DNA of 32,000 nucleotides from Candidatus Hodarchaeota archaeon (lineage in GTDB: Archaea > Asgardarchaeota > Heimdallarchaeia > Hodarchaeales > Hodarchaeaceae), in contig JAEOTC010000086.1 of the NCBI GenBank assembly GCA_016840035.1, forward strand, positions 115,175-147,174, written 5' to 3'. The position numbers and the translations under genes are program-made. The notes under the pieces were generated by a model that was given only the letters and a program-made list of their open reading frames with translations, was not told the DNA's origin and did no database searches. The first letter of the stretch is position 1; the number at the start of each line of letters is the position of its first letter. Positions 5,882-29,145 of this stretch are shown here, piece by piece.

Positions 5882-6096
5882 GGGATAACACCTTTAAAAG
5901 ATTTTACAGGGAATTCCTCTGAAAATCGACTTTAATCTGCAGAGGAAATGCTTAATTTAAATAGTTTTTAACAGCTTACTAGTTATTCCACCATTCTCAT
6001 TGTGTACAATATCTTCTGAATCGTTAAATATCCAAACTAAACTCGATTGGTTTGAAAGAGAAAAGATAGAAAAAGTTAATTTTCAGGTGGAATGAG

Positions 6097-6834
6097 TTGT
6101 TTGCCCCAAAAGGTTTAGGATATGACAGAGGGAGTACTATCTTTAGTCCTGATGGACGATTGTTTCAGGTAGAATATGCTATAGAAGCCGTGAAAAGGGG
6201 CACAACAGCAGTCGGCATTAAAACTGATGAGGGATGCATTCTCGTTGTACAAAAGAGATTACATACCACTCTAATCGAAAAAGAAAATGTAAAGAAGATT
6301 TTCGCAATTGATGATCACATTGCTGTTGCAATTGCGGGTTTAACTGCTGATGCACGTATACTTGTGAATCAGGCACGAATACAAGCCCAAATTCATCAAA
6401 TCACCTATAATGAATCAATCACTGTAGAAAATCTTACATATAGAATAGCGGATATGAAACAAGCATATACTCAACATGCAGGTGTCAGACCTTTTGGAGT
6501 CTCTTTGATCATAGCAGGGGTTGATGAAATTCATGGACCTCAATTGTACATGACAGAACCGAGTGGAAGCTACTGGGGGTATCGTGCCGCAGTGATTGGA
6601 TCTGGAACTCCGATAATCATAGAAGAATTAGAGAAATCTTACCCTAAAATATCTAAGACGATCCAAGAAGGAATAATTATCGCTCTAAAGGCATTACAAA
6701 AAGTGACGGACGATATTTTGGATCCCGAAATGGTAGAAATTGCTGTAATCTCAACTTCTGACAGAAAATTAATCTACTTTAGCTCGATAGATATATTAAA
6801 TCTCATAAAGCAAATTGGAAACACAGAGGAATAG
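6097..6834 (+). CDS. psmA: proteasome alpha subunit
   Basis: YDRGSTIFSPDGRLFQVEYA N-terminal signature. TTG start preceded by an AGGTGG Shine-Dalgarno sequence. Confidence 0.9.
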   Translation: MFAPKGLGYDRGSTIFSPDGRLFQVEYAIEAVKRGTTAVGIKTDEGCILVVQKRLHTTLIEKENVKKIFAIDDHIAVAIAGLTADARILVNQARIQAQIHQITYNESITVENLTYRIADMKQAYTQHAGVRPFGVSLIIAGVDEIHGPQLYMTEPSGSYWGYRAAVIGSGTPIIIEELEKSYPKISKTIQEGIIIALKALQKVTDDILDPEMVEIAVISTSDRKLIYFSSIDILNLIKQIGNTEE

Positions 6835-7578: not shown

Positions 7579-8295
7579 GTGATCAAAATGGGAATTTTAG
7601 TAAGTAAAAATCAACTGGTTGTACCAGGTGAGGTTTTAGCGCGCGGATCGGGAGTTAATGTCGCCGGTGGAGTATATAGAAAAAAAGTTAAGGGAGAAAC
7701 TGAAATAATAGCCTCCATGATCGGTTTAGTAAAAATACGCAAAGACAGTGTAGGTGTAGTCCCCTTAGAAGGATGTTATATTCCCCTAGAAGGAGATATA
7801 ATAATTGGAAAAATAGTAAAGGTTGGCATTACCTCTTGGAATGTCGATATACGAGGTCCATACGTTGGGGCTCTTCGAGTTAATAGTGTGCTAGATCGCG
7901 ATTTCGATTCTCTTAGAGAAAGTCTGGATCAAGTTTTGAATCATGGTGATGTGATTAAAGCACAAATAACGTATTTTGATAGAACTAGAGATCCAGTACT
8001 CACTATGCAAGGAAGAGGGCTTCGAAAAATTACACATGGTAGATTAATCGAAGTCGATCCTGTCAAGATACCAAGAATTATTGGGAAGAAAGGCAGTATG
8101 ATCCAATTATTAAAGAATATGACAAATGCGCAGATAATTGTGGGTCAAAATGGGCGTATTGTTGTTTCTGCCAACTCCGTTGAGAAAGAAAACTTGGTAA
8201 TTAATGCTATTAGGAAAATTGAAGCGGAAGCTCATACAAGTGGACTTACCGATCGAATAAGAGCTTATTTAGACGCTGAAAAACGAAAATTATGA
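7579..8295 (+). CDS. rrp4: exosome cap subunit Rrp4 (S1 plus KH)
   Basis: S1-like segment GDIIIGKIVKV.. and KH motif IPRIIGKKGSMIQLL. Conserved position before rrp41. The start could be ATG 7588 instead of GTG 7579. Confidence 0.85.
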   Translation: MIKMGILVSKNQLVVPGEVLARGSGVNVAGGVYRKKVKGETEIIASMIGLVKIRKDSVGVVPLEGCYIPLEGDIIIGKIVKVGITSWNVDIRGPYVGALRVNSVLDRDFDSLRESLDQVLNHGDVIKAQITYFDRTRDPVLTMQGRGLRKITHGRLIEVDPVKIPRIIGKKGSMIQLLKNMTNAQIIVGQNGRIVVSANSVEKENLVINAIRKIEAEAHTSGLTDRIRAYLDAEKRKL

Positions 8296-8311
8296 TAAAG
8301 GTTGAATTTAA

Positions 8312-9067
8312 ATGACACAAGAGAAAACATCTCTACTTTTAGATAATGGAAGACGTTTAGATGGTAGAGAACTTCATGAATTACGTCCAATTACTATGCG
8401 AAGTAGTGTGTTGGATAGAGCAGATGGGAGTTGTTACCTCACTTGGGGTAATAACAAAATTATATGTGCAGTATATGGTCCTAGAGAATTGCATCCAAAA
8501 CATTTAGCTAAACCAGATCGAGCTATCGTTCGTGTTGAATATCGACTAGCCACATTTTCTGTAAATGAACGAAAAAGTCCCGCTCCTAGAAGAAGGGAAT
8601 ATGAATTAAGTAAATTAATTAAAGAGTCTTTAGATGCAGTTCTATTCTTAGAAAAATTTCCTAACGGCACAATTGATGTTTATATCACGGTTTTAGATGC
8701 AGATGGAGGAACCCGATGTGCTGCTCTAACAGCGGCATCGATAGCCCTAGCCGACGCCGGTATTCCAATGAAAGGATTCATTACGGGCTGTGCGGTTGGA
8801 AAAGTTGCCGATAAAATGGTTGTTGACTTATCTGATGTTGAAGATAAAGATGGCCAAGGTGATATGCCCGTAGCTATGAATCATAACACCGGGGAAATCA
8901 CTCTGCTTCAATGTGATGGAGAATTCACAACTGATGAGGTAAAAGAAGGATTATCACTCGCAGTTGATGCAATTGGTGAGGTTTACAAGATGCAAAGAGA
9001 AGCAGTTTTAGCGAAATACACCCAAATCGAGGGAAAAATAGATGACTTGGGAGAAGAAGAGGAATAG
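8312..9067 (+). CDS. rrp41: exosome RNase PH subunit Rrp41
   Basis: RLDGRELHELRPI...DGSCYLTWGNNKIICAVYGPRE RNase PH signature. Confidence 0.9.
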   Translation: MTQEKTSLLLDNGRRLDGRELHELRPITMRSSVLDRADGSCYLTWGNNKIICAVYGPRELHPKHLAKPDRAIVRVEYRLATFSVNERKSPAPRRREYELSKLIKESLDAVLFLEKFPNGTIDVYITVLDADGGTRCAALTAASIALADAGIPMKGFITGCAVGKVADKMVVDLSDVEDKDGQGDMPVAMNHNTGEITLLQCDGEFTTDEVKEGLSLAVDAIGEVYKMQREAVLAKYTQIEGKIDDLGEEEE

Positions 9068-9931
9068 GTGAATATCATGCGTTCAGAAGCAATAGTTGGC
9101 GTTTTAGAAAAACAATACGTCACTAAATTACTTGAAAAGGGAAAGAGAGTTGATGGAAGAGGCTTATTGGATAGTAGACCAATACAAATCATTCCAAATG
9201 TAGTTAAGAAAGCTGAAGGGTCTGCGATGGTAAAATGGGGAGATACTGTTGTCCTCGCAGGTGTTAAAGCCCAATTGGGTTCTCCATTTCCTGATACACC
9301 AAATGATGGAGTAATTACTGTCAATGCTGAAATCTCACCAATTTCATCACCAACCAATGAAAGTGGTCCACCTGGCCCTCGCACCGTTGAATTAGCGCGT
9401 GTAGTGGATCGTGGTATTCGTGAAAGTAAAGTACTTCCTATGAAGGATCCTAAACTTTGTGTAATCCCAGGAAAGAAAGTTTGGATTATATTTGTTGATA
9501 TCTATATCCTTGATGATGGTGGAAATTTATTTGATGCTGCAGCTCTGGGTGCTATAGCAGCAATTGCAAATACGCGTATAAAAAAGGTCGTTATTGATGA
9601 AGATCTAGAGGAAGTTACTCTTTTGGAAGAAACAGAACCTCTCCCAAGGAATGGATCTGTTGTGAGTCTTACTTTTGCAAAAATTGAAAATACAATAGTT
9701 TACGACCCAAATCTTATCGAAGATCGGGGAAAAGATGCTCGATTCTCATTAGCTCTGACTGATAAAGGAATCGTATGCTCAATGCAAAAAGGAGAGTCTG
9801 GAATCTTCACTCAGGAAGAATTTACAAAAATTTTAGACCAAAGTTCAGCGTTAGCTGCACCTTTACTTGAGAAAATTGAGGATTGTTCTCAATACCCTGA
9901 ACTGAATGAAATGTACAATTTTGAATTTTAA
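9068..9931 (+). CDS. rrp42: exosome RNase PH-like subunit Rrp42
   Basis: VDGRGLLDSRPIQI...EGSAMVKWGDTVVLAGVKA. Directly abuts the rrp41 stop. The start is GTG 9068 or ATG 9077. Confidence 0.85.
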   Translation: MNIMRSEAIVGVLEKQYVTKLLEKGKRVDGRGLLDSRPIQIIPNVVKKAEGSAMVKWGDTVVLAGVKAQLGSPFPDTPNDGVITVNAEISPISSPTNESGPPGPRTVELARVVDRGIRESKVLPMKDPKLCVIPGKKVWIIFVDIYILDDGGNLFDAAALGAIAAIANTRIKKVVIDEDLEEVTLLEETEPLPRNGSVVSLTFAKIENTIVYDPNLIEDRGKDARFSLALTDKGIVCSMQKGESGIFTQEEFTKILDQSSALAAPLLEKIEDCSQYPELNEMYNFEF

Positions 9932-11873: not shown

Positions 11874-12821
11874 ATGGCTGAAACGAGCTGTTGTAGTAAT
11901 CCAGCATACACCAAAGATACAAAGACAAGGAAAAATCTTTGTCGTCAACATTTTTGTGAGCTATTTGAGAAACGGGTCAAAAAAACCATATCAAAGTACA
12001 AAATGCTGGCCCCTGAAGACCATATAGGACTTGGTTATTCGGGTGGGAAGGATAGTACTGCTCTGCTTCATTTTTTTTCGAACGTTCTTCTGACAAAATA
12101 TTCCAAGAATAAACTTACACTTATTGTCGTAGATGAAGGGATAAAAGGATATCGTGAGAGTGCCTTAGAAATAATAAAGAATATTTCCATGAAATACAAT
12201 TTTAGACACCTTATCATCTCTTTTTCAGAACTATACGGAGCAACATTGGATGAAATCGTCCACAAAAGCCATGAATCAGGGAGTTCCTTATCTGCTTGTG
12301 CTATCTGTGGAATCTTACGTAGAAGAGCACTCAACTATGGTAGCCATAAGGCAAAAGTAACAAAGATGGCAACAGCTCATAATTTGGATGATGAAGCTCA
12401 AACTATTGTTATGAATCTTTTACGCGGAGACACAGGTAAGTTCAAGAGGATCACTAGAACTCCAGTAAAAAGATTTTCTTCTCTTATACCTAGAATTCGG
12501 CCCTTTGTAAAAGTCTCAGAACCAGAGATAGTACTTTATGCGCATGCAAATAATCTTGAATACCATTCTGTACCCTGCCCGTATGCTTCCACTGCAATGC
12601 GTAATGACATACGAAATTTCTTATCAGAGATGGAAAATAAACGACCTAGTACACTGATAAATATTGTTAATGTTCATGACTCATTATCGCAATTCTTTAC
12701 GACACCTGAAATTACTTCCACTACATATTCATGTAAAATCTGTAAAGAATTAACAACACAAGAAATTTGTCCTGTATGTCAATTATTTGAGAAAATCGGC
12801 TTAAAGGTAAAAGTAACTTAA
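11874..12821 (+). CDS. tRNA 2-thiolation PP-loop ATPase (Ncs6/Ctu1/TtuA family)
   Basis: PP-loop motif GYSGGKDS. N-terminal CC..C..H and C-terminal CKIC...CPVC zinc fingers. AHNLDDEAQT motif. Confidence 0.8.
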   Translation: MAETSCCSNPAYTKDTKTRKNLCRQHFCELFEKRVKKTISKYKMLAPEDHIGLGYSGGKDSTALLHFFSNVLLTKYSKNKLTLIVVDEGIKGYRESALEIIKNISMKYNFRHLIISFSELYGATLDEIVHKSHESGSSLSACAICGILRRRALNYGSHKAKVTKMATAHNLDDEAQTIVMNLLRGDTGKFKRITRTPVKRFSSLIPRIRPFVKVSEPEIVLYAHANNLEYHSVPCPYASTAMRNDIRNFLSEMENKRPSTLINIVNVHDSLSQFFTTPEITSTTYSCKICKELTTQEICPVCQLFEKIGLKVKVT

Positions 12822-16509: not shown

Positions 16510-16938
16510 GTGAAATTCTTGGCTACTTTTGAAAACATGACATTAGGCGATAATAATGGATATAATTCAATGGAACAGGTTCAAAAAATTATTGATGGTC
16601 TTGGAACGGTAAAAGGCGTAAAAAAAGTTCTACTAGTAACTGAGGAAGGTTTTCCTATAATATCTGCTAGAACCTTACCTATGTCAGACGAGGTGGAGAC
16701 TGTTGTATCAGCAATGGTAGCAGGTATTGTGAGTACATTTTCAAGTGCATGTATTCAGCTAAATTTGGGAGATCAAGTGGATTTCATTCACGTTCAAACA
16801 CCTATAGGATTAGGAATTATATCAAAGGTACAAAGTACAATTCTTGTATTAATAACCGATTCTAATGTAAAATTAGGTTTGATGCACTATTTAGTTACAT
16901 CCACCAAGATGAAACTTCTTAAAACAAGGGAATTTTGA
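16510..16938 (+). CDS. Roadblock/LC7 (MglB-like) domain protein
   Basis: VKKVLLVTEEGFPIISA (strand-strand), ETVVSAMVAGIVSTFSSACIQL (helix), DFIHVQTPIGLGIISKVQSTILVLITD (three strands). The start is uncertain: GTG 16510, TTG 16519 after an AGGTGA Shine-Dalgarno sequence, or ATG 16537. Confidence 0.7.
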   Translation: MKFLATFENMTLGDNNGYNSMEQVQKIIDGLGTVKGVKKVLLVTEEGFPIISARTLPMSDEVETVVSAMVAGIVSTFSSACIQLNLGDQVDFIHVQTPIGLGIISKVQSTILVLITDSNVKLGLMHYLVTSTKMKLLKTREF

Positions 16939-17060: not shown

Positions 17061-17552
17061 ATGATGAGAATTGTCATGATAGGTGAATTTATAGTGACTT
17101 TGAATGAATCCCAGTTACAACTTTTTCCTGTTCCTTGTACATCAGGAATGGAACCGAACTGTATACTTGATCCTGATCACCCGTGTTGTGAGAACATAAA
17201 ACGCGAAACTATTGAGTTTAAAAATGGATTACTTGTGAAACAGGGAAATTCTGCAATTGTCTCTCTAAAATTATCTTTTAATGATCCTGTGGAAGAATTC
17301 ATATTTGACCGTATTCGGAATGATTTGTGGAGAAATCCTGGTAGTCATGTGAAAGTCATTAGAGCTCCAGAAGAAGGATTTCAGATTTCATTCTTCCTTA
17401 CGACCGAGATGGTGAAAACTCAGAATCAAAGGGAGAATCTGATTTCTTATTGGGAAGACTTTGCAATTAACATTCGCCAGGTCTTAACTGATGGTAAAAT
17501 GGCAGTCAACAAGTTTGTAAGAAGTAGAACGACAAGACTAAGACTGGATTGA
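17061..17552 (+). CDS. hypothetical protein (163 aa), Cys cluster near the N-terminus
   Basis: Intact ORF co-directional with the roadblock gene. Contains PCTSG..NC....HPCC. No family recognised. Confidence 0.35.
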   Translation: MMRIVMIGEFIVTLNESQLQLFPVPCTSGMEPNCILDPDHPCCENIKRETIEFKNGLLVKQGNSAIVSLKLSFNDPVEEFIFDRIRNDLWRNPGSHVKVIRAPEEGFQISFFLTTEMVKTQNQRENLISYWEDFAINIRQVLTDGKMAVNKFVRSRTTRLRLD

Positions 17553-17637: not shown

Positions 17638-18111
17638 TTATACAGCAATATCATATCCTGCACTATATATGGGATCCTGAGCTTCTCCATCAACTGAATA
17701 CTCGACTTTGATACGTACTTCATCATAAGCTCCAGGAGCAAAGGTGAAGACCATATCAATCTTGGATTGACTGGTTGCTATATTGAATGGAAAATTCGTT
17801 GAAGTATTATCATCATTAGTGAAAACAGCCCATGCACCAGATCCAGTTCTTCCTTCTAGAGTAACATTAGTTACTGCGACTGTGTCTGCGAGTTCATTGG
17901 TTAATGTAAACGTCAATTTGTCATTAAAACCATCAGTATCGATGTCTGAGAGGGTGGTTTTCCCGAATTTTAATTCTCCAGATGATTGGATCATCGGTAA
18001 CACAACTACAAACAATACAGCACCTGCAGCAACTGCGAGTCCAATTAGCAAAATAGCTGCTAATATTGGGCTTACAGCTCTTCTTCGTCTATATATTTTT
18101 ACTAAATTCAT
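17638..18111 (-). CDS. archaeal type IV pilin-like protein with class III signal peptide
   Basis: MNLVKIYRRRRAVSPILAAILLIGLAVAAGAVLFVVV shows a basic n-region, an R-A-V-S-P-I prepilin-peptidase-type site and a hydrophobic helix, as in the archaeal pilin N-terminal domain. Start trimmed to ATG 18111. Confidence 0.7.
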   Translation of the reverse strand: MNLVKIYRRRRAVSPILAAILLIGLAVAAGAVLFVVVLPMIQSSGELKFGKTTLSDIDTDGFNDKLTFTLTNELADTVAVTNVTLEGRTGSGAWAVFTNDDNTSTNFPFNIATSQSKIDMVFTFAPGAYDEVRIKVEYSVDGEAQDPIYSAGYDIAV

Positions 18112-18168
18112 TTTACTTAATTCTCCGTGAAATATGTTCAATTTCTTTCCGTATGAGCGGAATTAGCA

Positions 18169-18185: not shown

Positions 18186-18327
18186 ATATTATTTAAGCAT
18201 TTCATTTCATATGCTCAGAGCTTAATAAGCAGAGTTGAATAAAATATCCGAGAGTCTAGAAAACGATTCTAGGAAAGATGAGTGCGGAATATTGATTCGG
18301 ATAACTTATTATCATACTCATCCTAAA

Positions 18328-19836
18328 ATGGACAAAAGGTGCATTTCAAGAATGGTGAGACGATTTTCCACAACAAGTAGCGTTCTCCTCCTTACTCTAG
18401 TTCTCTTTGGAGGACTATTTTCTTTAGCAAATTCGATCACCTCGGCTCATACACACAGCTTACTAGATAGTGATTCTCCTAAAATCGCGATCTTTTATGG
18501 ATCAGCTAATGATAAAAGAATCAGTGAACAAATGACTTTGGATACAGAGATTGACGTAGAATATTATAATATCTCATCTGTTCTCACGAATCCTTCTTTC
18601 GTTTTTGATAATAATAGTGTGAAAGCAATTTGGTGGATCAACGAACTTCATCTACCAATCGATTTCTCTTTTGTGGGCGATCTAGCTTCCTGGGTGAAAA
18701 GTGGAAATGGATTGTTTATTCTCAATAAATACTTTGATAGGACACCTCTTGTGGAGCTTCAGAATTTAGGAATCAATGGTTATTGGCCTGAAGTATATCC
18801 CCTGAATCAGAGGTCAGATATGCATACTATTGACCTAGTGAATGAATCTCTTCCTTCTCTACAGCTTGAACAACTGTCTTATGAATTCAATGGTTCTTCC
18901 ACTTGGGTAGATTTACATGAGAAAACAGTTGTCCTTGCAGAGATTTCTCAACCAGAAAATGAGGCGTATCTCTCAAAATTCAATTCGGGTCTCTGGTTGG
19001 TACAAAATAAAGTTATTGTAGGTAGCTTTTCAGTGAATTTATCCCCTCCACAGACTAGGAATAAGTATGAACTATTGAGTGTACGTTCTACTTTAGCAAG
19101 TGGTCTAATAGATGTCCTAGGGGAGATTGCTCTCTTGACAACTGATAGTTTCTCAGATTCATCAGGAATGTTTCAATTTACGGGATTTGAACAGATAACA
19201 ACAGTTGTTATTATTTCTATTGTGGCAATTATCACTTTTATTGGCTTCATGAAGGTTGGTATTATCACCAAAGCTCGTGAGATCATAGTTGGAGTATTTA
19301 TGGGGACGTTTTTTCTACTGGCCCATATTGCTTATTCCCCCCAAAGAAGGAGAATTAGTGAGGATGATTTATTAGATAATGAAATGCGAATGCAAATTGT
19401 CGGATACTTGGAAGAGAAAGGTGAACAGGGGGCACATCTTCGTGAAATTCAGAGAATCCTTGGATGTGGAATCTCCTCCCTCTTATGGCATTTACAAGCA
19501 TTAGATGATTTCAATATTGTAACACACCATAAAATTGGGAAGTATCATCTATTTTACCTCACAGGTTCAGAATCACTACAAATATCAGAAATAGCATTAG
19601 CATTAAAGAGTGAGGTGGCCAAAGATCTTTGCAAAGTGTTATTACGGAATAAGAATCCCCTCTCTCTTTCAAAAATATCCTCTAACATCAATGTTCATCA
19701 TTCAAGCGTTCAACATCATATCAAACGACTTTCTGATTTAGGAGTAATTATGATAATTAAAGAGAAAAAGCGATCGACTTATATTATAAATCCAAATAGG
19801 GTAGAATCATTAGAAAAAGTCATGGAGGTAGCCTGA
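18328..19836 (+). CDS. membrane protein: N-terminal signal/anchor, about 270-aa sequon-rich extracytoplasmic domain, two hydrophobic helices, two C-terminal ArsR-like winged-helix domains
   Basis: MVRRFSTTSSVLLLTLVLFGGLFSLANS signal-like N-terminus. TM segments ITTVVIISIVAIITFIGFM and IIVGVFMGTFFLLAHIAY. wHTH 1 is MRMQIVGYLEEKGEQGAHLREIQRILGCGISSLLWHLQALDDFNIV. wHTH 2 is LSLSKISSNINVHHSSVQHHIKRLSDLGVI. The start is ATG 18328 or 18352; the tracked ORF starts at TTG 18235. Confidence 0.6.
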   Translation: MDKRCISRMVRRFSTTSSVLLLTLVLFGGLFSLANSITSAHTHSLLDSDSPKIAIFYGSANDKRISEQMTLDTEIDVEYYNISSVLTNPSFVFDNNSVKAIWWINELHLPIDFSFVGDLASWVKSGNGLFILNKYFDRTPLVELQNLGINGYWPEVYPLNQRSDMHTIDLVNESLPSLQLEQLSYEFNGSSTWVDLHEKTVVLAEISQPENEAYLSKFNSGLWLVQNKVIVGSFSVNLSPPQTRNKYELLSVRSTLASGLIDVLGEIALLTTDSFSDSSGMFQFTGFEQITTVVIISIVAIITFIGFMKVGIITKAREIIVGVFMGTFFLLAHIAYSPQRRRISEDDLLDNEMRMQIVGYLEEKGEQGAHLREIQRILGCGISSLLWHLQALDDFNIVTHHKIGKYHLFYLTGSESLQISEIALALKSEVAKDLCKVLLRNKNPLSLSKISSNINVHHSSVQHHIKRLSDLGVIMIIKEKKRSTYIINPNRVESLEKVMEVA

Positions 19837-19893: not shown

Positions 19894-21510
19894 GTGGTCT
19901 CTACATTCTTCACAGGAGCTATAGGCAACAGTAATTCGATCCAATTCTCCCAGTTGGATCCTTTTTACCAACAATCGCTATTTGGATTGAGATTTGACTA
20001 TAATCATGGGATTTCGCAAGAGAATTCTCTACAATTACACACGAATTTGGTTACTGGACAAGAAATTAATGATTCCATTGATCCTGATCCAATCATTGAT
20101 AATAACATTTCGATTATCGGACAGGACTCCTATGGAATAAAATCGTTACTTTTCGCTACAGAAAATATTGGAAGATCAGAGTTTATACCTCTATTTGGAA
20201 CCTTAGAATGGCAAGCTTCTCTTCCTTACTTCAAATATATCTCCATGTTTGATTTGCCTTCTGGAGAAAGTGTGATACTAACTCAAGACATCTTAGGTTT
20301 AGCCTTGAAGCTAGATGGGCAGAATTTCCTGACTGATCAATATCTAGTAGGATATGCCAATATACCTGTAGAATTCTTGGAATTCTTGTTTGAATCCCTA
20401 AATCCTGTTCAGATGGCTGAAAATTCGATTAACGGGTATACTTCTCCAATTGATATGCCAAATTTGTCAAATCCAAATCCAATGAGAATTTCTATTGAAG
20501 AAAATGACAATGAATTGATAATTACCATGACTTATACAAATATATCTTATTTATTTCAAACAAATCCAATTAGTATTGAACACCTTAGTAGTTTTAGTCT
20601 TTCAGAAAATTTTGTTTTGATTGAGTTCGAATCAATCTCCTACATCACGAGAATATTGAAATATTCCACATCAAGTAATACTGGAGTAGAAACACAAGTA
20701 GAAATGAGTGTTGGGAGGATTCGGAATTTGTTAATCAATGAGAAACTACCATCAGAAGTAAGTTGGGATTCAGCATCAGAAACACATATCGTAAAAAAAT
20801 ACGAAGACTTGATCAACATTGATGAAACGATTTCATGGTATAAAGAGGTTGATATTGAAAAACGAATGGCTTTATTTAACCAAGCTTCTCTTTCATTTCT
20901 AGGTTCGCATAATCTAGGTGTGGTTTCTAACACTGAATCACAAAAGAATTCGTTTCTAAAAATTGATGGGCAAAATAGAACAAAAAATGAGTTATTACAA
21001 ATGGATCTCTCTGCTGAGAGAAATATTTCATTATATCAAGATAGCAATCTTCTCCTTTTGAATCAAATAAATGGCTATGATTATGCACTTCATCTGGAAC
21101 CAAACTTGCAACATTGGTCATTGTCACCTGTAAGTATAAAATCAATAGCATTGAATCAACATCCGAGTTTAAGTGGTAACATTTTATTTTTAGATCAGGC
21201 CTCTATTTTAAATCCGTTTTTGGTTGATGTTCTCCGACGTTTTACGGCTAATCTGTCTACTAGTACCCTTAGTGCAGAACAAATTCTAAAAACTGCCACA
21301 CTATATCTTACATCCGCGGAATATATTCAAGAGTATTGTATAAACTCATGGACTGGTTATCCCACAAAAATAAAATCACTTTCAACAGCAATACTTAATT
21401 CAAATAACTTAGAAGTTGGCCTATCAAGAATATCGTTCTTTCCACTCTTTCCTGGGTTATTATCGATATTTTTCATAACGGTTTACCAGACAAGAAAGAG
21501 ACGTATGTAA
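19894..21510 (+). CDS. large Asn/Ser-rich surface protein with C-terminal PGF-CTERM-like membrane anchor; start unresolved
   Basis: Many N-x-S/T sequons. C-terminus FFPLFPGLLSIFFITVYQTRKRRM has a motif, a hydrophobic helix and a basic tail. The first canonical start (GTG 19894) falls inside a hydrophobic segment that begins upstream of it. Confidence 0.5.
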   Translation: MVSTFFTGAIGNSNSIQFSQLDPFYQQSLFGLRFDYNHGISQENSLQLHTNLVTGQEINDSIDPDPIIDNNISIIGQDSYGIKSLLFATENIGRSEFIPLFGTLEWQASLPYFKYISMFDLPSGESVILTQDILGLALKLDGQNFLTDQYLVGYANIPVEFLEFLFESLNPVQMAENSINGYTSPIDMPNLSNPNPMRISIEENDNELIITMTYTNISYLFQTNPISIEHLSSFSLSENFVLIEFESISYITRILKYSTSSNTGVETQVEMSVGRIRNLLINEKLPSEVSWDSASETHIVKKYEDLINIDETISWYKEVDIEKRMALFNQASLSFLGSHNLGVVSNTESQKNSFLKIDGQNRTKNELLQMDLSAERNISLYQDSNLLLLNQINGYDYALHLEPNLQHWSLSPVSIKSIALNQHPSLSGNILFLDQASILNPFLVDVLRRFTANLSTSTLSAEQILKTATLYLTSAEYIQEYCINSWTGYPTKIKSLSTAILNSNNLEVGLSRISFFPLFPGLLSIFFITVYQTRKRRM

Positions 21511-21870: not shown

Positions 21871-23655
21871 ATGAAGAAGAAACTTATTACGGGAAGTTCG
21901 GTAATCTTTTTACTGATACTTCTTACATTTACTTCTCCAGCTCAAGCCACGGATTATGCAGGGCATGATTTTAGTGAGGATCATTTTGCTGTTGAAATCG
22001 ATCTTTTCCCTAATCCTGCAGACCCTGACGTAATCTACGATTTTGGTACAGGAACTGGAGATGGAGACTCAGTTGAAGAAACTGATTTGCAATTCTTTAT
22101 GAGCTATATGAATCATAGTGGAATTGAAGTAGCTTACTCCGCTTTAGAAAAAATGGAACACTGGATAAAATTCCGTGATTTATTACCTACCGAAGTAGGT
22201 GAGCTCATTGATACTCTAGGTCCATTGGCACCTGAAGGCGCAGCAGAGGCTCTTAACTCAAACCTTGTTCATGTCAATGCAACAGCACCCTTCCAACAGT
22301 TAGTTCAACACTTTAACACTCCTTGGGGTACTGATGCCTTTGTAACAAATAATTTCATGACACTAGTTGCCTATTCTGGAGGAACTGGATCAGATCCTCT
22401 ACTTATGGACGCAGGTGATAATCTCTATATGGGTTATACTTTTGCAGTCCAAGAAGTGACAGATGCCCTTAACGCAGTCATGGCACCACATTATGAGATT
22501 CCTCATTTTGATTATGAAGCAAATTTTGAGCAAACTGCAGATGGATATACATTCGGTATCAATTATACCAATATGTTTGTCTTATGGCAGGATATTACCG
22601 TTCCCCTTCGTGGACCAGATTATTTAAATGCTGCGGGCCTTCAACTACCAGAAACTAAAGGAGTTATCTATGGACAAGATATTGTTGCCGCATCAGTTTT
22701 AGATCATCTTGCTTTTGAATATATTTTCAAAGTAGAACAAATTGATTTAGGAACTACTCCCTCAATTAAAGTTAACCTAGGAACTGTAGAGACAAGATAT
22801 CATATTGGTGAAACAAATTTACTTGTTACAAAAGATGATGCGACATTCATCTCAGATCATTCCGCCGATTGGCTTGGTTCACCTTTTACTGCAACACCCA
22901 GTTACACTTTAGATGTTCCTCTCGCTCTCCAAGGCCAAACTGTTGGTTCGTGGACTTTCCCAGCCAGTGTAACTCTAACTCTCTCAGAAATGGCTTTCTT
23001 TATCAACGATGATGCTAAAGTTAGAATGAGTATGGCTGATGCCTTTGGGTTAACTGTTGTAACTGCAACAAACTGGTTTGATACTCAAGTAGTAACAGAT
23101 CCTCAATATGCGACTCACTTAGATGAACCTGAAGATCCTAAAATTACTCTCGAAAGAGATGGAAATGAATTCTTCTGGACTAGTTTCAAAGATAAAATGA
23201 ACTATAAGTTAAGAGAGTTAAATTTTGATCCTTTCTTCGAGGATGACACTATTGATCGTGATGTGTATGTTACATTATTTGATCCAAGTGGTTGGTTTGC
23301 GGCTAATGTTGCTAAACCATATTTCCTTATCGAATTTTCACTTGCTTGGGGCTTTACAGTCTTCATGGCTTCAAAAATTGCACCAGAAATTGTTCATCCA
23401 GGAGCAGGTTCACATACAGAAGTGGTTAACCAAATCCTATATTTAACTTTCACTGAATTTCCAGAGTGGTTTGGTGGAGAAATCTATCATGATCCTTCAT
23501 ATTCTGCTGTTGCAGCGGTTGCTGCTCAACCAGAAACAACCACCGATAGTCCACCTGGAACTGATACGACTGACGCAGCCTTTCCAGGATTTGAATTAGT
23601 TTCTGTATTAGTTGCACTCCCTCTCATGTTTGCAGCATATCGAAAGAGACGATAA
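21871..23655 (+). CDS. acidic secreted cell-surface protein (S-layer/surface glycoprotein candidate) with PGF-CTERM-like sorting signal
   Basis: Sec signal MKKKLITGSSVIFLLILLTFTSPAQA|TD. Thr/Pro-rich linker QPETTTDSPPGTDTTD. C-terminal FPGFELVSVLVALPLMFAAYRKRR. AGGTG Shine-Dalgarno sequence 10 nt upstream of the ATG. Confidence 0.7.
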   Translation: MKKKLITGSSVIFLLILLTFTSPAQATDYAGHDFSEDHFAVEIDLFPNPADPDVIYDFGTGTGDGDSVEETDLQFFMSYMNHSGIEVAYSALEKMEHWIKFRDLLPTEVGELIDTLGPLAPEGAAEALNSNLVHVNATAPFQQLVQHFNTPWGTDAFVTNNFMTLVAYSGGTGSDPLLMDAGDNLYMGYTFAVQEVTDALNAVMAPHYEIPHFDYEANFEQTADGYTFGINYTNMFVLWQDITVPLRGPDYLNAAGLQLPETKGVIYGQDIVAASVLDHLAFEYIFKVEQIDLGTTPSIKVNLGTVETRYHIGETNLLVTKDDATFISDHSADWLGSPFTATPSYTLDVPLALQGQTVGSWTFPASVTLTLSEMAFFINDDAKVRMSMADAFGLTVVTATNWFDTQVVTDPQYATHLDEPEDPKITLERDGNEFFWTSFKDKMNYKLRELNFDPFFEDDTIDRDVYVTLFDPSGWFAANVAKPYFLIEFSLAWGFTVFMASKIAPEIVHPGAGSHTEVVNQILYLTFTEFPEWFGGEIYHDPSYSAVAAVAAQPETTTDSPPGTDTTDAAFPGFELVSVLVALPLMFAAYRKRR

Positions 23656-23660
23656 ACGTT

Positions 23661-23692
23661 CTCTTTTTTCCTCTTTTTTCCTTTTTTTTTCC
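23661..23692 (+). terminator. triple oligo-T terminator after the surface-protein gene
   Basis: CTCTTTTTTC CTCTTTTTTC CTTTTTTTTTCC: three consecutive T6-T9 tracts starting 6 nt after the stop. Confidence 0.6.
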
Positions 23693-23880
23693 TTATTCTT
23701 TGAGTAACACACTTTTCTTCTGGTAATAACCAAGAATTTCCATTTTCTCCTCAAGGTAAATAGTTTAGTTCTTCCTCTCATGATGAAGAGTAAAAGGGAA
23801 GGGATTATAAATGACAAGATTTAAACCGAAGTCTAGATAATAGAAACAACTAACTACAAATCTTGACATGAAGTGATGAA

Positions 23881-26451
23881 ATGACAAATATTGATCTTCT
23901 ATCAGATCCGATAAATCTAGTAATCTCTCTAATATTAACATTTTCCCCATTAATTGTTTTATTCATTCCATATCTGTATACTCGACGAAAGTCGGAAAAT
24001 TTTATCGCTACGATATTTAATCGGGCATATGTCGGGTTTGTGATTTTTTATATAGCGTATTTCATTTTTCCCAGTATTCTAAACTCATTTGTACCAGATC
24101 CGAATCAATATATTGATCAAGAATACTATCCAATTGCAGGAAGTTCTGGATGGACAACTGTATGGGATTCTGAATCAGTAATCACCCAAGGAGCAGTATC
24201 GGTACCTATACCACTGCTGATAAAGTATCTCTTTCAACATTTTTTTAACTCAATTGTGATATTTCTGAGTTATCCTGTAGTAATTCTCGCATTCGTCTTT
24301 GGTATTTCCCCTATAATTTCTATGTTGATTATTTTCTACCAGACTTGGACTGAAAAGCGGAATGAACTAAATCCAATCAAAAAATTAATCAAACGGAATA
24401 ATAAAGAAATTTCTCAACTCAAAAAGCAGTTAAAACACGCTAATGAATCAGAAGCTTATGAGAAGAACGTAGCTATTTCTGAATTTAAAACTGAAAATCA
24501 AGAATTGGAAAAACAACTTTCCGAAGCAAGATCAGTATCCCAACGTTTGCAAGAAATCCAATTCGAGCTCGAACACTCCCCGTTCCATGCTGTAATGAAA
24601 AGAGTAAAAGAGAAGAATTGGGATAATGAAAGAGAGTTATTGAAAGTTTTAATTGCGATATTACCCATTACATTATTTTTATTGATGACAATATTGCAGT
24701 TACTCGGAGAAACTGAAAACCCAAGCTTACTCCAAGGAACATCAATGGGGTGGTTTTTAGAAATTTATTTTGCCTATATCGCAACTCTAGTATTCAGTAT
24801 ATACCTAATAAAGGCCAGTCTATTATCAAGAAAAGGTAAGTTCTTGGGTAATCAAATGTACATTGCAATGGTTCAAAGTTTATCCACTGTTGGTGCTTTT
24901 ATGTCGGGATTGGCCGTTATATTATTCTTGGTGCAATATTTCGATCAGATATTCGTTGTTTCGTACTTTATCGTCTATTTCATCATGGTTTCACTATTTT
25001 TCGTGCTTTTCTTAGATGTATTTGAGCCATTCTCTATATACATCTTGTTAAAGCTAATAGAGAGCTTTAAATCGTTTAGAGTATCAATACGGAGATTTAA
25101 TAGGATAAATATTGCGAAAAGTACCATTTCAGGTATTCTAGTTGGTGTTCTTCTATCTGTTGGTTTTTTAACATATCTAGTAATTGTCAAAAGTATTTTT
25201 TCTAACTTTAGTACTGTTCAATATTCGACATTTTTCTGGTTAACTCAGAATTATGCAAGTTTTCTACTAGCAGCAACATTAGTTTTAATAATTAGGCGCT
25301 GGAATTGGAGTGTTATCGGAACTAGCACCATTACATATTTGTCTATATTATTTGTAAGTCTTTTCATAATTCGATGGTATTTTGAAGAGTGGTATATATT
25401 CCTAGGTTTCAGTGAAGGTGACCTATATCCAAGCTATCAAGGAGAGATTCTAGTTGCACCCTTTCTTCAGGCTACTTCGGTTTTAGGAACTATTGACCTA
25501 AACTGGTTAACTGCTGTATGGAAAGGTGGAACATATGGTGACTTTCAATTTATCTTACCTGAGTTACGGCAGATACCTGTGATCTGGCAAGGATCTGGAG
25601 GTCAATTTTTACAAGCTCTCTCAATCCCCTATAACTTATTTCATCCCTTGGCAATCCTTCTTATATATGGGGGTATTTTATTCCTAGCTGGTAAACAATT
25701 TCATGTCAGAACACAAAAAGGAGAAGAAAAAACTCAATATAAGTCAATTTTTTCAGATGTCACCCGTTTACTCAGTACGGATGAGCTAGAATCAAAATCT
25801 GACATTCTTTTAATCGCTGCAACTCCAGCTAAGGATGAAGAAAACGGAAAATTGATTGATAAAGCATGGCTGAATTCAGAAAAAGGAAGTTTCCTTCGTG
25901 ATGCAATTACTGGCCAAATGCAATCGATTTCTAAACTGATAGAGAAGACTGGACTTTCAATTGATGAAATCCATTCCATTTTAGATGAAGTGACATATGA
26001 CGCAGACGTACCTTTCAATCAGATTATTACTCTCTGGCATCGGGAATTCTCATATTCATTCGAAGAAGTAACTATCGATTCACTTCATGTAATGATGCTG
26101 GATGGGCGCGCGGTTCTTTCTCACACATTTGGAGAAGAATCACAAGTAGAACCAGCATTAGTAGCTGGATTATTTTCTGCCATTACATCTTTTGCAAAGG
26201 AAGCTGTTCGTAGTGAACAGTTACTCAAGACTATTGACCATGGGGATGTGGTTCTTACGATCGAGTATGCCAAATGGGTATTCGCTGCGATTTTTGCTGA
26301 CAGTACATCCACTGAATTACGTAAAAAATTAGGTGAATTTTTGAATGATTTTGAATCAAGGCATAAGAAAACCCTTCCTAAATGGTTAGGAGATTTAGAT
26401 GCATTCACGGGAGAAACAGAGATGATTCGGGAGCTCTTTCCTGGATCATAA
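23881..26451 (+). CDS. polytopic membrane protein (about 11-12 TM) with cytoplasmic coiled-coil insert and C-terminal longin/roadblock-like module
   Basis: Numerous 18-25-aa hydrophobic segments. Heptad-like charged stretch at aa ~160-250 (nt 24358-24630). C-terminal 125 aa (nt 26074-26448) has a strand-strand-helix-strand-strand-strand-helix pattern with PALVAGLFSAITSFAKE. GTGATGA Shine-Dalgarno sequence upstream. Confidence 0.7.
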   Translation: MTNIDLLSDPINLVISLILTFSPLIVLFIPYLYTRRKSENFIATIFNRAYVGFVIFYIAYFIFPSILNSFVPDPNQYIDQEYYPIAGSSGWTTVWDSESVITQGAVSVPIPLLIKYLFQHFFNSIVIFLSYPVVILAFVFGISPIISMLIIFYQTWTEKRNELNPIKKLIKRNNKEISQLKKQLKHANESEAYEKNVAISEFKTENQELEKQLSEARSVSQRLQEIQFELEHSPFHAVMKRVKEKNWDNERELLKVLIAILPITLFLLMTILQLLGETENPSLLQGTSMGWFLEIYFAYIATLVFSIYLIKASLLSRKGKFLGNQMYIAMVQSLSTVGAFMSGLAVILFLVQYFDQIFVVSYFIVYFIMVSLFFVLFLDVFEPFSIYILLKLIESFKSFRVSIRRFNRINIAKSTISGILVGVLLSVGFLTYLVIVKSIFSNFSTVQYSTFFWLTQNYASFLLAATLVLIIRRWNWSVIGTSTITYLSILFVSLFIIRWYFEEWYIFLGFSEGDLYPSYQGEILVAPFLQATSVLGTIDLNWLTAVWKGGTYGDFQFILPELRQIPVIWQGSGGQFLQALSIPYNLFHPLAILLIYGGILFLAGKQFHVRTQKGEEKTQYKSIFSDVTRLLSTDELESKSDILLIAATPAKDEENGKLIDKAWLNSEKGSFLRDAITGQMQSISKLIEKTGLSIDEIHSILDEVTYDADVPFNQIITLWHREFSYSFEEVTIDSLHVMMLDGRAVLSHTFGEESQVEPALVAGLFSAITSFAKEAVRSEQLLKTIDHGDVVLTIEYAKWVFAAIFADSTSTELRKKLGEFLNDFESRHKKTLPKWLGDLDAFTGETEMIRELFPGS

Positions 26452-26526
26452 TTTCTTAGACTAGGGAGGGTTTCTCCATCTTTGTATTCAAATCAATGGG
26501 CAGTGGAACGAATCACGGAATTTAGG

Positions 26527-29145
26527 TCATTCTATCTGAGCTATCACACAGAGAAAGGTATCTGGCGTATATATTGATACTGACACAATAAGATTTGCAC
26601 TTCCAGATGAAAGAATATATTTTGGTCCCTTTAAGGGGTTTGTAGTCTTTCTATTTGGTATAAAACCGGCTTTAGTTAATAATTTTAAGCTTTCAAGCAA
26701 TTCTGATTTAGTATAGATGTTAACGCTTTGAGTATTTCGTTTAATTTGAATATTTGATTCAAAAATAATGTCACGGATCAATATATCTTCTTTAAGTGCA
26801 TCTGGAATATCATTTTCATGAATTTCTGAAATCAACGGCATGATCCAATTCTCAAGGACTTCATTTGGAAGATCAATTGTGGATTCTAGAGAAGGGTCAA
26901 CCTCGAAGGCTTTAGTAAAAAAGTCTTCTTTTTGATCTGGTTCTAATTCTTGACGAACAGCGATTTCTTCTTTCTCAAAACTCGGTAATTTACGATTTTT
27001 ATCTTGTGGTACTAAAATACCCTTTTTAAATAGTATTATAAGTTGCTCAAAGATTTCATTATATTTAAATTTTGAACTAAATAAGCCATGATTTACTATT
27101 TCCTTAATAAACAAACCTTCAGTGTTAGCCAACTGATTATTTTGCTCTTGAATAACTTGAAGTAGTGGATTATCTGAAACTTGCTCTTCAGTATCTATTC
27201 TAAGTGCAAGCGGTCCTAATACAGATAAACCAAGAATATTATCAAGGTCTTCTATTGCTGATTGAAATGGATCTAGTTCTCCAACGAAATCAGTAAGTAG
27301 ATCCTGGAATCTCTTTTCAAAAGCGTAAACAAATTCCCGTCCTCGTTTTCTCAGACGTTTACTGAATCTTGGAGGTCGTTCTAATATAAATGCTGTTACT
27401 GAGTAATTTCCTTCAATAGTAACAATTTTAAAAGTCCTATCGCCAATATCCTCGGTAAAGTCTCTTACTATAGTTCGATCTTTTATTTCCTCACTTTTTA
27501 ATTCCGTAAATAAGCTTGAAATTGCTGTTAGGAAGCCAGAAACTAATTGTGGATCAACTTTGAGCATTGAAGTCCCAAATTTAAACAAACAAATACCAGT
27601 GAGCTTGTGAGTTATCATAATATGTTCACAATAAAGAAGATTCATTAGATCCTTGTAATCTATAGGATTCATAGGTGAAAATCCCAGGGAGGGTTCGACT
27701 TTGATTTCGTGAAAAATCTCGTCCTTTTTACTAGCACTCACTTGTTCTTCACGTATCCCAGACTTAGCACGAAAAATCGGTATTAAATCTGGCATACTAT
27801 CCTTTTGAGGATCAATATGTTTGGTTAACCTTGCTCGAACTTTAATTTTGACTGGACTCGAAATGCTATCTTGGAGACCCACAATTAAAGCTTCTCCTTT
27901 TGTTAAATGGGGGAGAACTGAAACTGTATCTGTATTTATTCCCTCCATTAAACGAATTTTTGTTATATCTTTTTCGGATTTGATTCGGAGAGCTACGAGA
28001 GTATTCATGTTCGCGATTATATTATCTGGCAGATCTCCTGGTCTTTGTGACACTAGCATCTCGTAAATACCAAATTTTCTCCCTTCACGCGCGATTTGTG
28101 CAAGAATATCGCTTTTTTGAACAAATCTATGTGCTTCCTCCAATATTATCAAGATTTCCTGTTCATGTGGAATCTCTCCCTGAATTTTTTTCTGAAATAT
28201 TTGAGTTAGTAATTCATTCACTAATGTATTCCTTTTTTTCTCATCTGTGTATTGATCAAGTCGAATGATCGATATCTGGTTTTCACGAACTAGAGAGGAA
28301 ATATCTATTTCTTCTTTATACACAGATTGTTTTTTAAGAGTGTTAATTTTCGAAATTAAATTTTCACGTGTTTGTGTGTGCATATCAGAATTCTTTATAT
28401 TGGTTAAAATAGATTCCAGATTATCTGGCTGGTCAAGAATGTTCGTGAGTGCATTTTCTTGAGCGGTTGATAATTCCAATAGTCTTCTTAGTTTTGGTAA
28501 ATCAAATTGGGTTCCTAATCCAATTGTTCCTTCTCCAAAAATTAGTAACCTTTCAGCGAACCCTTGTGGGTAATATCCTTCGTAATCTAAAGAACTGATT
28601 TCACTTCCTGTATTTTCTAATCCAAGTCCCCAATATTCGTTGTGAACGTCGAAGAGTAGTATCGAGGTGTTTTGGATTTTCAAAAGAATCTCCTCCAATA
28701 AAACACCAATACTGTATGACTTTCCTGCCCCCGTACTAGCTACACATAGAACATGTCGTTCTAAAAATTTAGGTGATATTAAGAATGGATCCGTTGATGA
28801 GGGAGAAGTAACAATATCTCCTAAATATATCCCCCCTTCTCCATCATAGGATATAATTTTTGAAATCAACCCTTTTGGAGGAATAGACACTTCTGAATCC
28901 ATTGAGATAGGAATTCGACATGGTTTTAAGCGAAATTCATCCATTTCAAATTCCCCCAGAATATCTGCAATCGCTTTCATCTCCCCTTCTTTTTCTTGTG
29001 ATAATCGGAATATTTGAGCAATTAGATGCTTATTACTTGACCGATTCTTGTCAAATAAAACAATATAATCTCCTTCGTGGAAAATATTCTCGTCAATATC
29101 CGAAAGAAAAGTAATACGGGAGGTGGTGGTTTTTGTAATTTTCAT
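26527..29145 (-). CDS. HerA/FtsK-superfamily P-loop ATPase (HAS-barrel plus DUF87-like core) with about 430-aa C-terminal extension containing a longin/roadblock-like module
   Basis: N-terminal barrel-like 95 aa. Walker A VASTGAGKS (nt 28717-28740). Walker B ILIILEEAH (nt 28129-28155). AREGRKFGIYEMLVSQRPGDL and LTKGEALIVG are typical of HerA. The module at aa ~500-640 (nt 27226-27648) carries PQLVSGFLTAISSLFTE. Confidence 0.8.
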   Translation of the reverse strand: MKITKTTTSRITFLSDIDENIFHEGDYIVLFDKNRSSNKHLIAQIFRLSQEKEGEMKAIADILGEFEMDEFRLKPCRIPISMDSEVSIPPKGLISKIISYDGEGGIYLGDIVTSPSSTDPFLISPKFLERHVLCVASTGAGKSYSIGVLLEEILLKIQNTSILLFDVHNEYWGLGLENTGSEISSLDYEGYYPQGFAERLLIFGEGTIGLGTQFDLPKLRRLLELSTAQENALTNILDQPDNLESILTNIKNSDMHTQTRENLISKINTLKKQSVYKEEIDISSLVRENQISIIRLDQYTDEKKRNTLVNELLTQIFQKKIQGEIPHEQEILIILEEAHRFVQKSDILAQIAREGRKFGIYEMLVSQRPGDLPDNIIANMNTLVALRIKSEKDITKIRLMEGINTDTVSVLPHLTKGEALIVGLQDSISSPVKIKVRARLTKHIDPQKDSMPDLIPIFRAKSGIREEQVSASKKDEIFHEIKVEPSLGFSPMNPIDYKDLMNLLYCEHIMITHKLTGICLFKFGTSMLKVDPQLVSGFLTAISSLFTELKSEEIKDRTIVRDFTEDIGDRTFKIVTIEGNYSVTAFILERPPRFSKRLRKRGREFVYAFEKRFQDLLTDFVGELDPFQSAIEDLDNILGLSVLGPLALRIDTEEQVSDNPLLQVIQEQNNQLANTEGLFIKEIVNHGLFSSKFKYNEIFEQLIILFKKGILVPQDKNRKLPSFEKEEIAVRQELEPDQKEDFFTKAFEVDPSLESTIDLPNEVLENWIMPLISEIHENDIPDALKEDILIRDIIFESNIQIKRNTQSVNIYTKSELLESLKLLTKAGFIPNRKTTNPLKGPKYILSSGSANLIVSVSIYTPDTFLCVIAQIE

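Follow-up and report, generated by a model that had tools for sequence, protein, structure and literature searches.

The genes considered here, termed A and B, lie within a 32,000-nucleotide (nt) stretch of DNA (the window) from Candidatus Hodarchaeota archaeon (assembly GCA_016840035.1, contig JAEOTC010000086.1, positions 115,175 to 147,174 of the forward strand). The two genes stand tail to tail and encode a polytopic membrane protein (A) and a HerA-clade ATPase (B), both of which carry the same module, homologous between the two proteins and predicted to adopt a longin-like fold. The genes have stayed adjacent in Hodarchaeales and in rearranged contexts elsewhere in Heimdallarchaeia. It is plausible, if tentative, that A and B work together as a functional pair specific to the Heimdallarchaeia lineage, in which the longin domains of B would recruit an ATPase ring to the membrane via A. 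The fuller picture of a membrane-docked hexameric motor, held by longin-longin pairing in the archaeal lineage closest to eukaryotes, is offered as a rather doubtful extension. An initial annotation, made from the sequence of the window, had described convergent open reading frames (ORFs) of 856 and 872 amino acids (aa) with 75 nt between their stops, and the ORF list places the genes exactly so (Table 1). The owners of A and B homologs are labelled Hodarchaeales, Heimdallarchaeota or Promethearchaeota, and are Asgard archaea.

The shared longin-like module

The modules of A and B, ~135-150 aa in length, are homologous by pairwise and by profile-profile comparison, in agreement with what the initial annotation had proposed. 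BLASTP gives 33% identity (E=2e-7) between A755-847 and B529-632, and hhalign of the two family profiles aligns A734-853 with B506-638 (probability 95.1%, E=3.2e-8). The fold was recognised only through structure prediction and Foldseek, sequence searches having failed. Module sequences of 20 members gave no significant match to a Pfam longin or roadblock family, the best being Intu_longin_1 at E=0.13 in a single member, and a profile search against PDB sequences returned nothing significant. A joint A/B alignment served to build an AlphaFold model of A700-856 (pLDDT 75.6, core blocks 88-96), which has the topology strand-strand-helix-strand-strand-strand-helix, with no helix before strand 1. 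Its strands (E) and helices (H) are E33-40, E45-50, H59-75, E85-87, E92-97, E101-107 and H112-128, followed by short C-terminal helices, and the full-length model shows the same elements.

The top Foldseek matches of the modelled module are the longin domains of AP sigma/mu, zeta/delta-COP, Mon1-Ccz1, TRAPP Bet5/Trs23, Sec22b and VAMP7, with E-values of ~1e-4 to 1e-3 and target-normalised TM-scores mostly of 0.4-0.67 for single-domain targets. The full-length model of A yields the same longin matches, and Asgard Roadblock2 and MglB rank below the longin structures. Structure prediction hence assigns the module of A and B to a longin-like fold. Standalone module proteins from other loci begin directly at strand 1, which fits a longin rather than a roadblock domain. 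The module had been described as longin/roadblock-like; the longin half of that description holds on topology and Foldseek matches. A roadblock/LC7 identity was rejected, given the lack of a Robl_LC7 match, the missing N-terminal helix and the lower rank of roadblock and MglB structures. The genuine Robl_LC7 protein of the window is likewise not matched by the module hidden Markov model (HMM).

The membrane protein A

A hydropathy scan and an AlphaFold model (pLDDT 81.7, pTM 0.83) agree on ~11 transmembrane (TM) helices, a cytoplasmic insert and a soluble C-terminal region of ~250 residues (aa ~606-856), much as first annotated. The membrane domain displays two short extracellular beta-hairpin regions in the model (aa ~80-111 and 541-566), and residues invariant or near-invariant across the family include G290, E294, Y366 and E382/P383. 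The insert is missing in Thor/Hermod-type homologs (an alignment gap in P0179 and P0181-P0185) and in the A homologs of loci L088 and L089, where HMM positions ~158-213 are skipped. A link between the insert and the presence of B was considered and ruled out, the insert-less A proteins of L088 and L089 being paired with B. Between the membrane domain and the module, a linker of short beta strands and a four-helix bundle may form a fold resembling a winged helix, as judged from the model; the linker has no Pfam match. The module itself is the most conserved part of the A family and is near-invariant across Hodarchaeales.

A matches no Pfam or NCBIfam family in the local copies scanned, and Foldseek of the full-length model finds nothing significant in the PDB for its membrane domain. 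A and two close homologs carry the precomputed Pfam tag PF28006.1, a family absent from the Pfam copy scanned, so that part of A may already be covered by a curated family. Homologs of A number 65 in the protein database, with 140 relatives in species-representative genomes, all of them Asgard-labelled. A is a member of an ancient pan-Asgard family of ~11-TM proteins with a longin-type cytoplasmic tail.

The ATPase B

By its motifs and profile matches, B is assigned to the HerA clade of the HerA/FtsK superfamily of P-loop pumping ATPases, consistent with the motifs noted in the initial annotation. Across 24 homologs, the segments ASTGAGKSY (Walker A), ILEEAHRF (Walker B), REGRKFG and SQRPGD do not vary. 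Pfam places DUF87 (E=4e-16) and HerA_C (E=1e-5) on aa 120-437, and the best solved structures for the family profile are HerA proteins (9x1l, E=8e-36; 4d2i, E=7e-30). From this family membership B is presumed to be hexameric. All NCBIfam HerA equivalog models score far under their cut-offs on B, including NF040819 (106.4 bits vs 970) and NF040937 (86.6 vs 800). PADLOC matches to B are to generic HerA models and cover the ATPase region only; none falls on A or its neighbours.

The HAS barrel proposed for the N-terminus of B receives partial support, in that the profile alignment to HerA 9x1l covers only B ~54-100, the last part of such a barrel. The diverged B-type proteins of L088-L090 lack the N-terminal region, and the B family HMM match begins at ~position 113 in L088 and L089. 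Beyond the HerA core, B has ~430 further residues, which include the longin-like module. The region after the module (aa 646-720) is possibly a winged helix, judging from conserved helical sequence, and has no Pfam or PDB sequence match; a profile search with the C-terminal 227 aa of B gave no PDB sequence match. About 60 full-length homolog clusters of B were found, and the family has been found only in metagenome-assembled genomes of Heimdallarchaeia type.

Conservation and linkage of the pair

Linkage was analysed in 77 loci drawn from the 140 A relatives. Hodarchaeales-type A genes (at least 61% identity) have a convergent B ortholog downstream in every locus with enough flank, and the pair is kept in ~25 such loci (L001, L002, L010, L011-L024, L026-L030, L072). 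The spacer between the stops measures 12-125 nt in 25 of the 27 linked loci. The pair also occurs in other gene contexts, so that its linkage is not restricted to a single syntenic clade. L088 and L090 carry, in order, a helix-turn-helix (HTH) gene, S1, B, A, S2 and QRPTase, where S1 and S2 denote relatives of two secreted/surface protein genes that precede A in the window; compared with the window, S2, A and B have been inverted together as one block. L089 carries, in order, MptE, PTPS, Metallophos, B, A, peptidase M24 and topoisomerase. In each of these loci an A protein 33-38% identical to that of the window is convergent with a diverged HerA-plus-module protein, ~25% identical to B and lacking its N-terminal ~100 aa. 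Linkage of the pair beyond the window is thus seen within Heimdallarchaeia, L088/L090 and L089 included, and is not seen in ~55 loci from the rest of the Asgard archaea. Module genes are sparse, with two confident and three marginal ones in 0.91 Mb of Asgard flanks, and a module-bearing neighbour would therefore be expected by chance in only ~1-3% of cases.

In 18 of 52 loci from non-Heimdall lineages, short-type A is followed downstream by a gene on the other strand for a protein of ~153 aa, with a gap of 30-121 nt in seven of them. The family bears a resemblance to the module (DPxIRAxFLxGLxxFIxEVFG) in the right register, but hhalign gives only 7.9% (E=4e-3) and Pfam finds nothing, and homology is not claimed.

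Longin domains commonly regulate small GTPases. Genes of Arf-family small GTPases lie within a few kb of B-type genes in L005 (1616-2176, minus strand) and L090 (17033-17602, plus strand).

The wider module family

An exhaustive HMM search with a joint A/B module profile recovered 5,310 cluster representatives at E<=1e-3, of which 1,167 reach E<=1e-10, in proteins of 115-2,171 aa; all named owners are Asgard archaea. The architectures include other HerA-type ATPases, proteins in which an Ig-rich ectodomain is followed by the module and a KaiC/DUF835 ATPase, PCI plus winged-helix proteins, very large proteins in which Pfam finds nothing, and proteins made of the module alone, in some cases followed by what may be a winged-helix tail. 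In 15 of 18 proteins inspected the module starts 0-16 residues from a TM helix, which leaves the B-type ATPases among the few soluble carriers. Receptor-like proteins with a large ectodomain, a TM helix and the module are exemplified by P0269, P0272, P0275, P0316, P0361 and P0322, several of which continue into a KaiC/DUF835-type ATPase. As read from such TM-module-KaiC chains, the module family appears repeatedly to link membranes to oligomeric P-loop ATPases. The module resembles a juxtamembrane adaptor domain of general use in Asgard archaea, and was not found described in the literature searched.

Module proteins and ATPases are also found near one another as separate genes. In L007/L008, a 220-aa protein (6001-6663, plus strand), which consists of a standalone module and possibly a winged-helix tail, directly follows an 858-aa MoxR-type AAA+/VWA protein and lies near a CDC48 gene, another module-ATPase association. 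A metagenome scan with B-type ATPases returned mostly unfused HerA-type ATPase domains, matching residues ~10-420, and a small module protein was present nearby in L128 and L150 only. In L128 an unfused HerA-type ATPase (8001-9266, plus strand) is followed ~2.8 kb downstream by a standalone module ORF of ~140 aa (12070-12492, plus strand; HMM E=3e-19).

The literature describes Asgard genomes as holding many longin/roadblock families whose domains are extensively shuffled, and reports that MK-D1 GTPase genes are generally not in operons with roadblock, longin or TRAPPC3 genes. In the literature searched there is no description of a HerA-longin fusion, the A family, the A-B pair or Heimdall-CTERM. 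The architectures of A and B are not reported there either; the abundance and shuffling of longin/roadblock domains in Asgard archaea were already known.

Proposed mechanism and alternative explanations

In the mechanism proposed, A would be an ancient pan-Asgard membrane-anchored longin platform, and B a soluble HerA-clade ATPase, presumed hexameric, that would have acquired a longin-type domain and two further C-terminal regions. The longin domains of B would pair with the membrane-anchored longin domain and bring the ATPase ring to the membrane, where ATP hydrolysis could power translocation or remodelling, either at A or through it. As its gene stays beside that of B, A is the foremost candidate partner. 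The view taken in the initial annotation, of a two-gene system docked by heterodimerising modules, finds partial support. Direct contact of this kind would most simply be made by longin-longin pairing, by analogy with AP, TRAPP and Mon1-Ccz1. In lineages without B, the longin domain of A would have to work with another partner, such as a small GTPase or a longin/roadblock protein.

A number of observations weigh against a functional pair, and many of them are equally accounted for if there is no specific partnership, the two genes having become neighbours once in the ancestor of Heimdallarchaeia and been kept so by slow rearrangement, with B serving other partners and A acting as in all the remaining Asgard archaea. 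This alternative, the main rival, is a real, though somewhat doubtful, possibility. The region of +/-10 kb is syntenic throughout Hodarchaeales, so that the ~25 Hodarchaeales loci count as roughly one observation, and the contexts of L088/L090 and L089 each share one flank with the window type and are not fully independent. The convergent orientation means that A and B are not co-transcribed. Some loci break the pair: L018 (4343-5746, plus strand) and L027 (10290-11693, plus strand) have a 467-aa gene between A and B, which widens the gap to ~1.6 kb and encodes a CxxxCxxC motif (GCSWRRCRFCS; radical-SAM-like by eye); in L005 a B-type gene (P0061, 32% identity) stands beside a thioredoxin-reductase-like gene without A; and in L006 and L059 an A protein of 1,128 aa has HTH and S-type neighbours but no B. 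Elsewhere among Asgard archaea (labels Loki, Thor, Hermod, Odin and Hel; A at 26-33% identity), ~55 loci show no B-type gene within up to 10 kb of A, and these loci share another neighbourhood of HDAC, profilin, ABC/FtsX and cyclase genes; the basic function of A therefore needs no B.

The modules themselves point the same way. That of A scores ~90 bits against the modules of small unrelated proteins, above its scores against B-family modules, and that of B reaches 60-72 bits against modules of 1,500-1,900-aa proteins and at most 54 bits against A-family modules. The two are not each other's closest relatives and form no sister branches, and so are no recent duplicate pair. Since the module is promiscuous and mostly follows directly on TM helices, sharing it does not single out A as the partner of B, and with thousands of family members in many architectures B could have other membrane partners. 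The published record of longin/roadblock shuffling, and of MK-D1 GTPase genes outside such operons, fits such inherited adjacency as well. Adjacency without partnership does not readily explain, however, why the pair survives replacement of either flank (L088/L090, L089) at 33% and 25% identity, nor why the neighbour should carry the module at all, given how rarely this is expected. Confidence in A and B as a functional pair is kept tentative by the convergent genes, the partly dependent contexts, the unlinked cases, the non-sister modules and the alternative juxtamembrane partners.

Two further explanations are each improbable. In one, B is a classical HerA nucleic-acid motor for DNA repair or anti-phage defence, its longin and C-terminal domains are regulatory or effector-binding, and A is irrelevant. 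The B core is indeed nearest to HerA helicases and anti-phage HerA proteins, and the conserved helical, possibly winged-helix, region after the module would suit such a role. Against it, the scores of B lie far below all HerA equivalog cut-offs, no NurA, SIR2, DUF4297 or other nuclease/effector gene occurs nearby, the core-genome position is fixed in every Hodarchaeales-type locus, and the defence-system matches are restricted to the generic ATPase region. In the other, equally unlikely, A and B belong to a trio or larger set with S2 (together with S1 and the HTH regulator), and export, anchor or process Heimdall-CTERM surface proteins. An S2 homolog adjoins A in the window type, in L088/L090 (31% identity in L088), where it moved with the inverted block, and in L006, and S2 bears a Heimdall-CTERM-like tail; S2 is a possible third member. 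However, L089 keeps A and B without S1, S2 or the HTH gene, short-type A elsewhere has the HDAC, profilin, ABC/FtsX and cyclase neighbours instead, the T-runs after the S2 stop suggest separate transcription, and A has no similarity to sortases or secretion components in Pfam, NCBIfam or the PDB.

Genomic setting and neighbouring genes

The window is core chromosome, with pyrF, NAD kinase, aIF5A, proteasome alpha, SBDS, exosome genes, Pcc1, prefoldin and CDC48, and ORF scans place the A-B locus in this setting and in no defence island. Around the pair the gene order is HTH protein, S1, S2, A, B, thioredoxin-reductase-like gene, PTPS and MptE-like gene. The initial annotation had remarked on the absence of NurA; in line with this, NurA, Mre11 and Rad50 had no match in any scanned ORF of the window or in the homolog neighbourhoods.

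S1 (19894-21510, plus strand) is a secreted/surface protein with a hydrophobic-plus-basic tail similar to that of S2, and neither has a Pfam family. The tail of S2 matches NCBIfam NF045529 at E=1.9e-4, with 21.7 bits against a cut-off of 24 and hence below it. Three consecutive T-runs (6, 6 and 9 T) come directly after the S2 stop, at ~23665-23690, and would fit an archaeal oligo-T terminator between S2 and A; with the TATA-like stretch, they suggest that A has a promoter of its own. From these T-runs and the convergent arrangement, A and B are inferred to be separate transcription units. Upstream of S1, a 533-aa protein (18235-19836, plus strand) has two C-terminal ArsR-type HTH domains and ~370 N-terminal residues without assigned function; it precedes the S1/S2 genes in every context where these are retained. 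Further upstream, genes of a Roadblock/LC7 protein (16510-16938, plus strand), an ARPC4-like protein (ARP2/3 complex subunit 4 family; 17061-17552, plus strand) and an archaellin/type IV pilin-like protein (17638-18141, minus strand) lie close together, and keep the same position in 13-14 Hodarchaeales-type loci.

Table 1. Features of the A-B locus and its surroundings. Nucleotide positions are those of the window, except in the last row, where they are those of the loci named.
Feature	Residues (aa)	Nucleotides	Strand	Description	Evidence
Gene A	1-856	23881..26451	+	856-aa polytopic membrane protein, pan-Asgard family	ORF, homologs, AlphaFold model
A membrane domain	1-605	23881..25695	+	~11 TM helices	Hydropathy scan, model secondary structure
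A cytoplasmic helical hairpin	~157-245	24349..24615	+	Coiled-coil-like insert, extends TM3	Model helices 112-184, 189-214
A linker region	606-715	25696..26025	+	Cytoplasmic	Model elements E607-613, E618-627, E643-647, H653-707
A longin-like module	716-852	26026..26436	+		hhalign vs B, model topology, Foldseek
A-B stop-to-stop spacer		26452..26526		75 nt	Sequence
Gene B	1-872	26527..29145	-	872-aa HerA-clade ATPase with longin-like module and two further C-terminal regions	
B N-terminal region	1-110	28816..29145	-	Possible HAS barrel	HerA 9x1l profile alignment from position ~54
B P-loop ATPase core	117-443	27817..28797	-		Walker A, Walker B, Pfam, PDB HerA, invariant columns
B longin-like module	497-645	27211..27657	-		BLASTP, hhalign, joint alignment, module HMM E=1e-50
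B helical region	646-720	26986..27210	-	EGLF.EEIVN...	Conserved in alignments
B C-terminal domain	770-872	26530..26838	-	DIL.RD..FES ... NPL.G.K	Invariant D787, I788, R791, N836, P837, G840
S2		21871..23655	+	Secreted/surface protein, Heimdall-CTERM-like tail	
Spacer upstream of A		23656..23880	+	T-runs, AT-rich TATA-like stretch	Sequence
~153-aa protein, examples		L004 10244-10705; L036 12234-12692; L045 12241-12702; L077 12252-12713	-		

Implications

Longin and roadblock domains belong to the core of eukaryotic membrane-trafficking and signalling machinery, and their abundance in Asgard archaea is one of the main arguments that this machinery is of archaeal origin, although hardly any of the archaeal proteins has an assigned partner or role. 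Hodarchaeales are the proposed closest relatives of eukaryotes. The A-B locus supplies a concrete candidate pair from this order, in which a membrane-anchored longin protein is matched with a motor ATPase carrying the same domain. If the pairing is true, it would be a prokaryotic precedent for eukaryotic longin platforms that recruit nucleotide-driven machines, the machine here being a HerA-type translocase and the platform an 11-TM protein of novel structure. Should the ~153-aa protein prove longin-like, the combination of A with a convergent longin partner would be an ancestral Asgard trait and B its motor-bearing elaboration. Even if the pairing is false, there remain a pan-Asgard A family with a membrane domain lacking a solved structural relative, and a characteristically juxtamembrane longin subfamily repeatedly combined with oligomeric P-loop ATPases of HerA and KaiC type. 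Together these results hint that Asgard archaea have a general means of linking membrane proteins with ATPases of the cytoplasm.

Comparison with known systems

The HerA clade, which comprises archaeal HerA-NurA, bacterial HerA-SIR2 and HerA-DUF4297, and TdpA, shares with B the DUF87/HerA_C core and its motifs (aa ~117-443). B differs in falling far under every equivalog cut-off, in having no nuclease or SIR2 partner, and in the extra C-terminal residues, whose fusion of a longin-like domain to HerA was not found in the literature searched. Canonical HerA has the NurA nuclease adjacent, usually along with Mre11/Rad50, whereas no NurA is adjacent among the scanned ORFs at the A-B locus; compared with anti-phage HerA, there is no adjacent effector, and the position of A-B is fixed and syntenic rather than patchy or island-like.

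The analogy with the Ced system, drawn in the initial annotation, does not extend to membership. In Ced and type IV secretion-like systems a gene for a HerA-superfamily ATPase likewise stands beside one for a polytopic membrane protein. The NCBIfam CedD model, however, gives B 57.6 bits where its cut-off is 600, no similarity of A to CedA, VirB6 or PilC/FlaJ was seen in Pfam, NCBIfam or the PDB (CedA may be absent from the PDB), and the A-B unit contains no pilin or other Ced or type IV secretion components.

The module has the same topology as the eukaryotic longin domains of AP, COP, TRAPP, Mon1-Ccz1 and Sec22b/VAMP7. It differs from eukaryotic and known Asgard longin proteins in having no Pfam longin/roadblock sequence match, in its typically juxtamembrane position and in its fusion partners, which here are a polytopic membrane protein and a HerA ATPase and not GTPases, SNARE motifs or DENN. 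Ragulator/LAMTOR and SRalpha(SRX)-SRbeta share the logic of a membrane longin/roadblock platform that recruits an NTPase. This is a functional analogy, with homology in fold only: those systems recruit small GTPases via lipidated or single-pass anchors, whereas A and B would involve a presumed hexameric motor and an 11-TM anchor.

A further parallel is found within Asgard archaea, in the ectodomain-TM-module-KaiC/DUF835 proteins P0269, P0272 and P0275. These proteins, themselves uncharacterised, differ in their RecA/KaiC-type ATPase, single TM helix and large Ig-rich ectodomain, but carry the same module family between membrane and ATPase, and may be regarded as a single-chain counterpart of A plus B.

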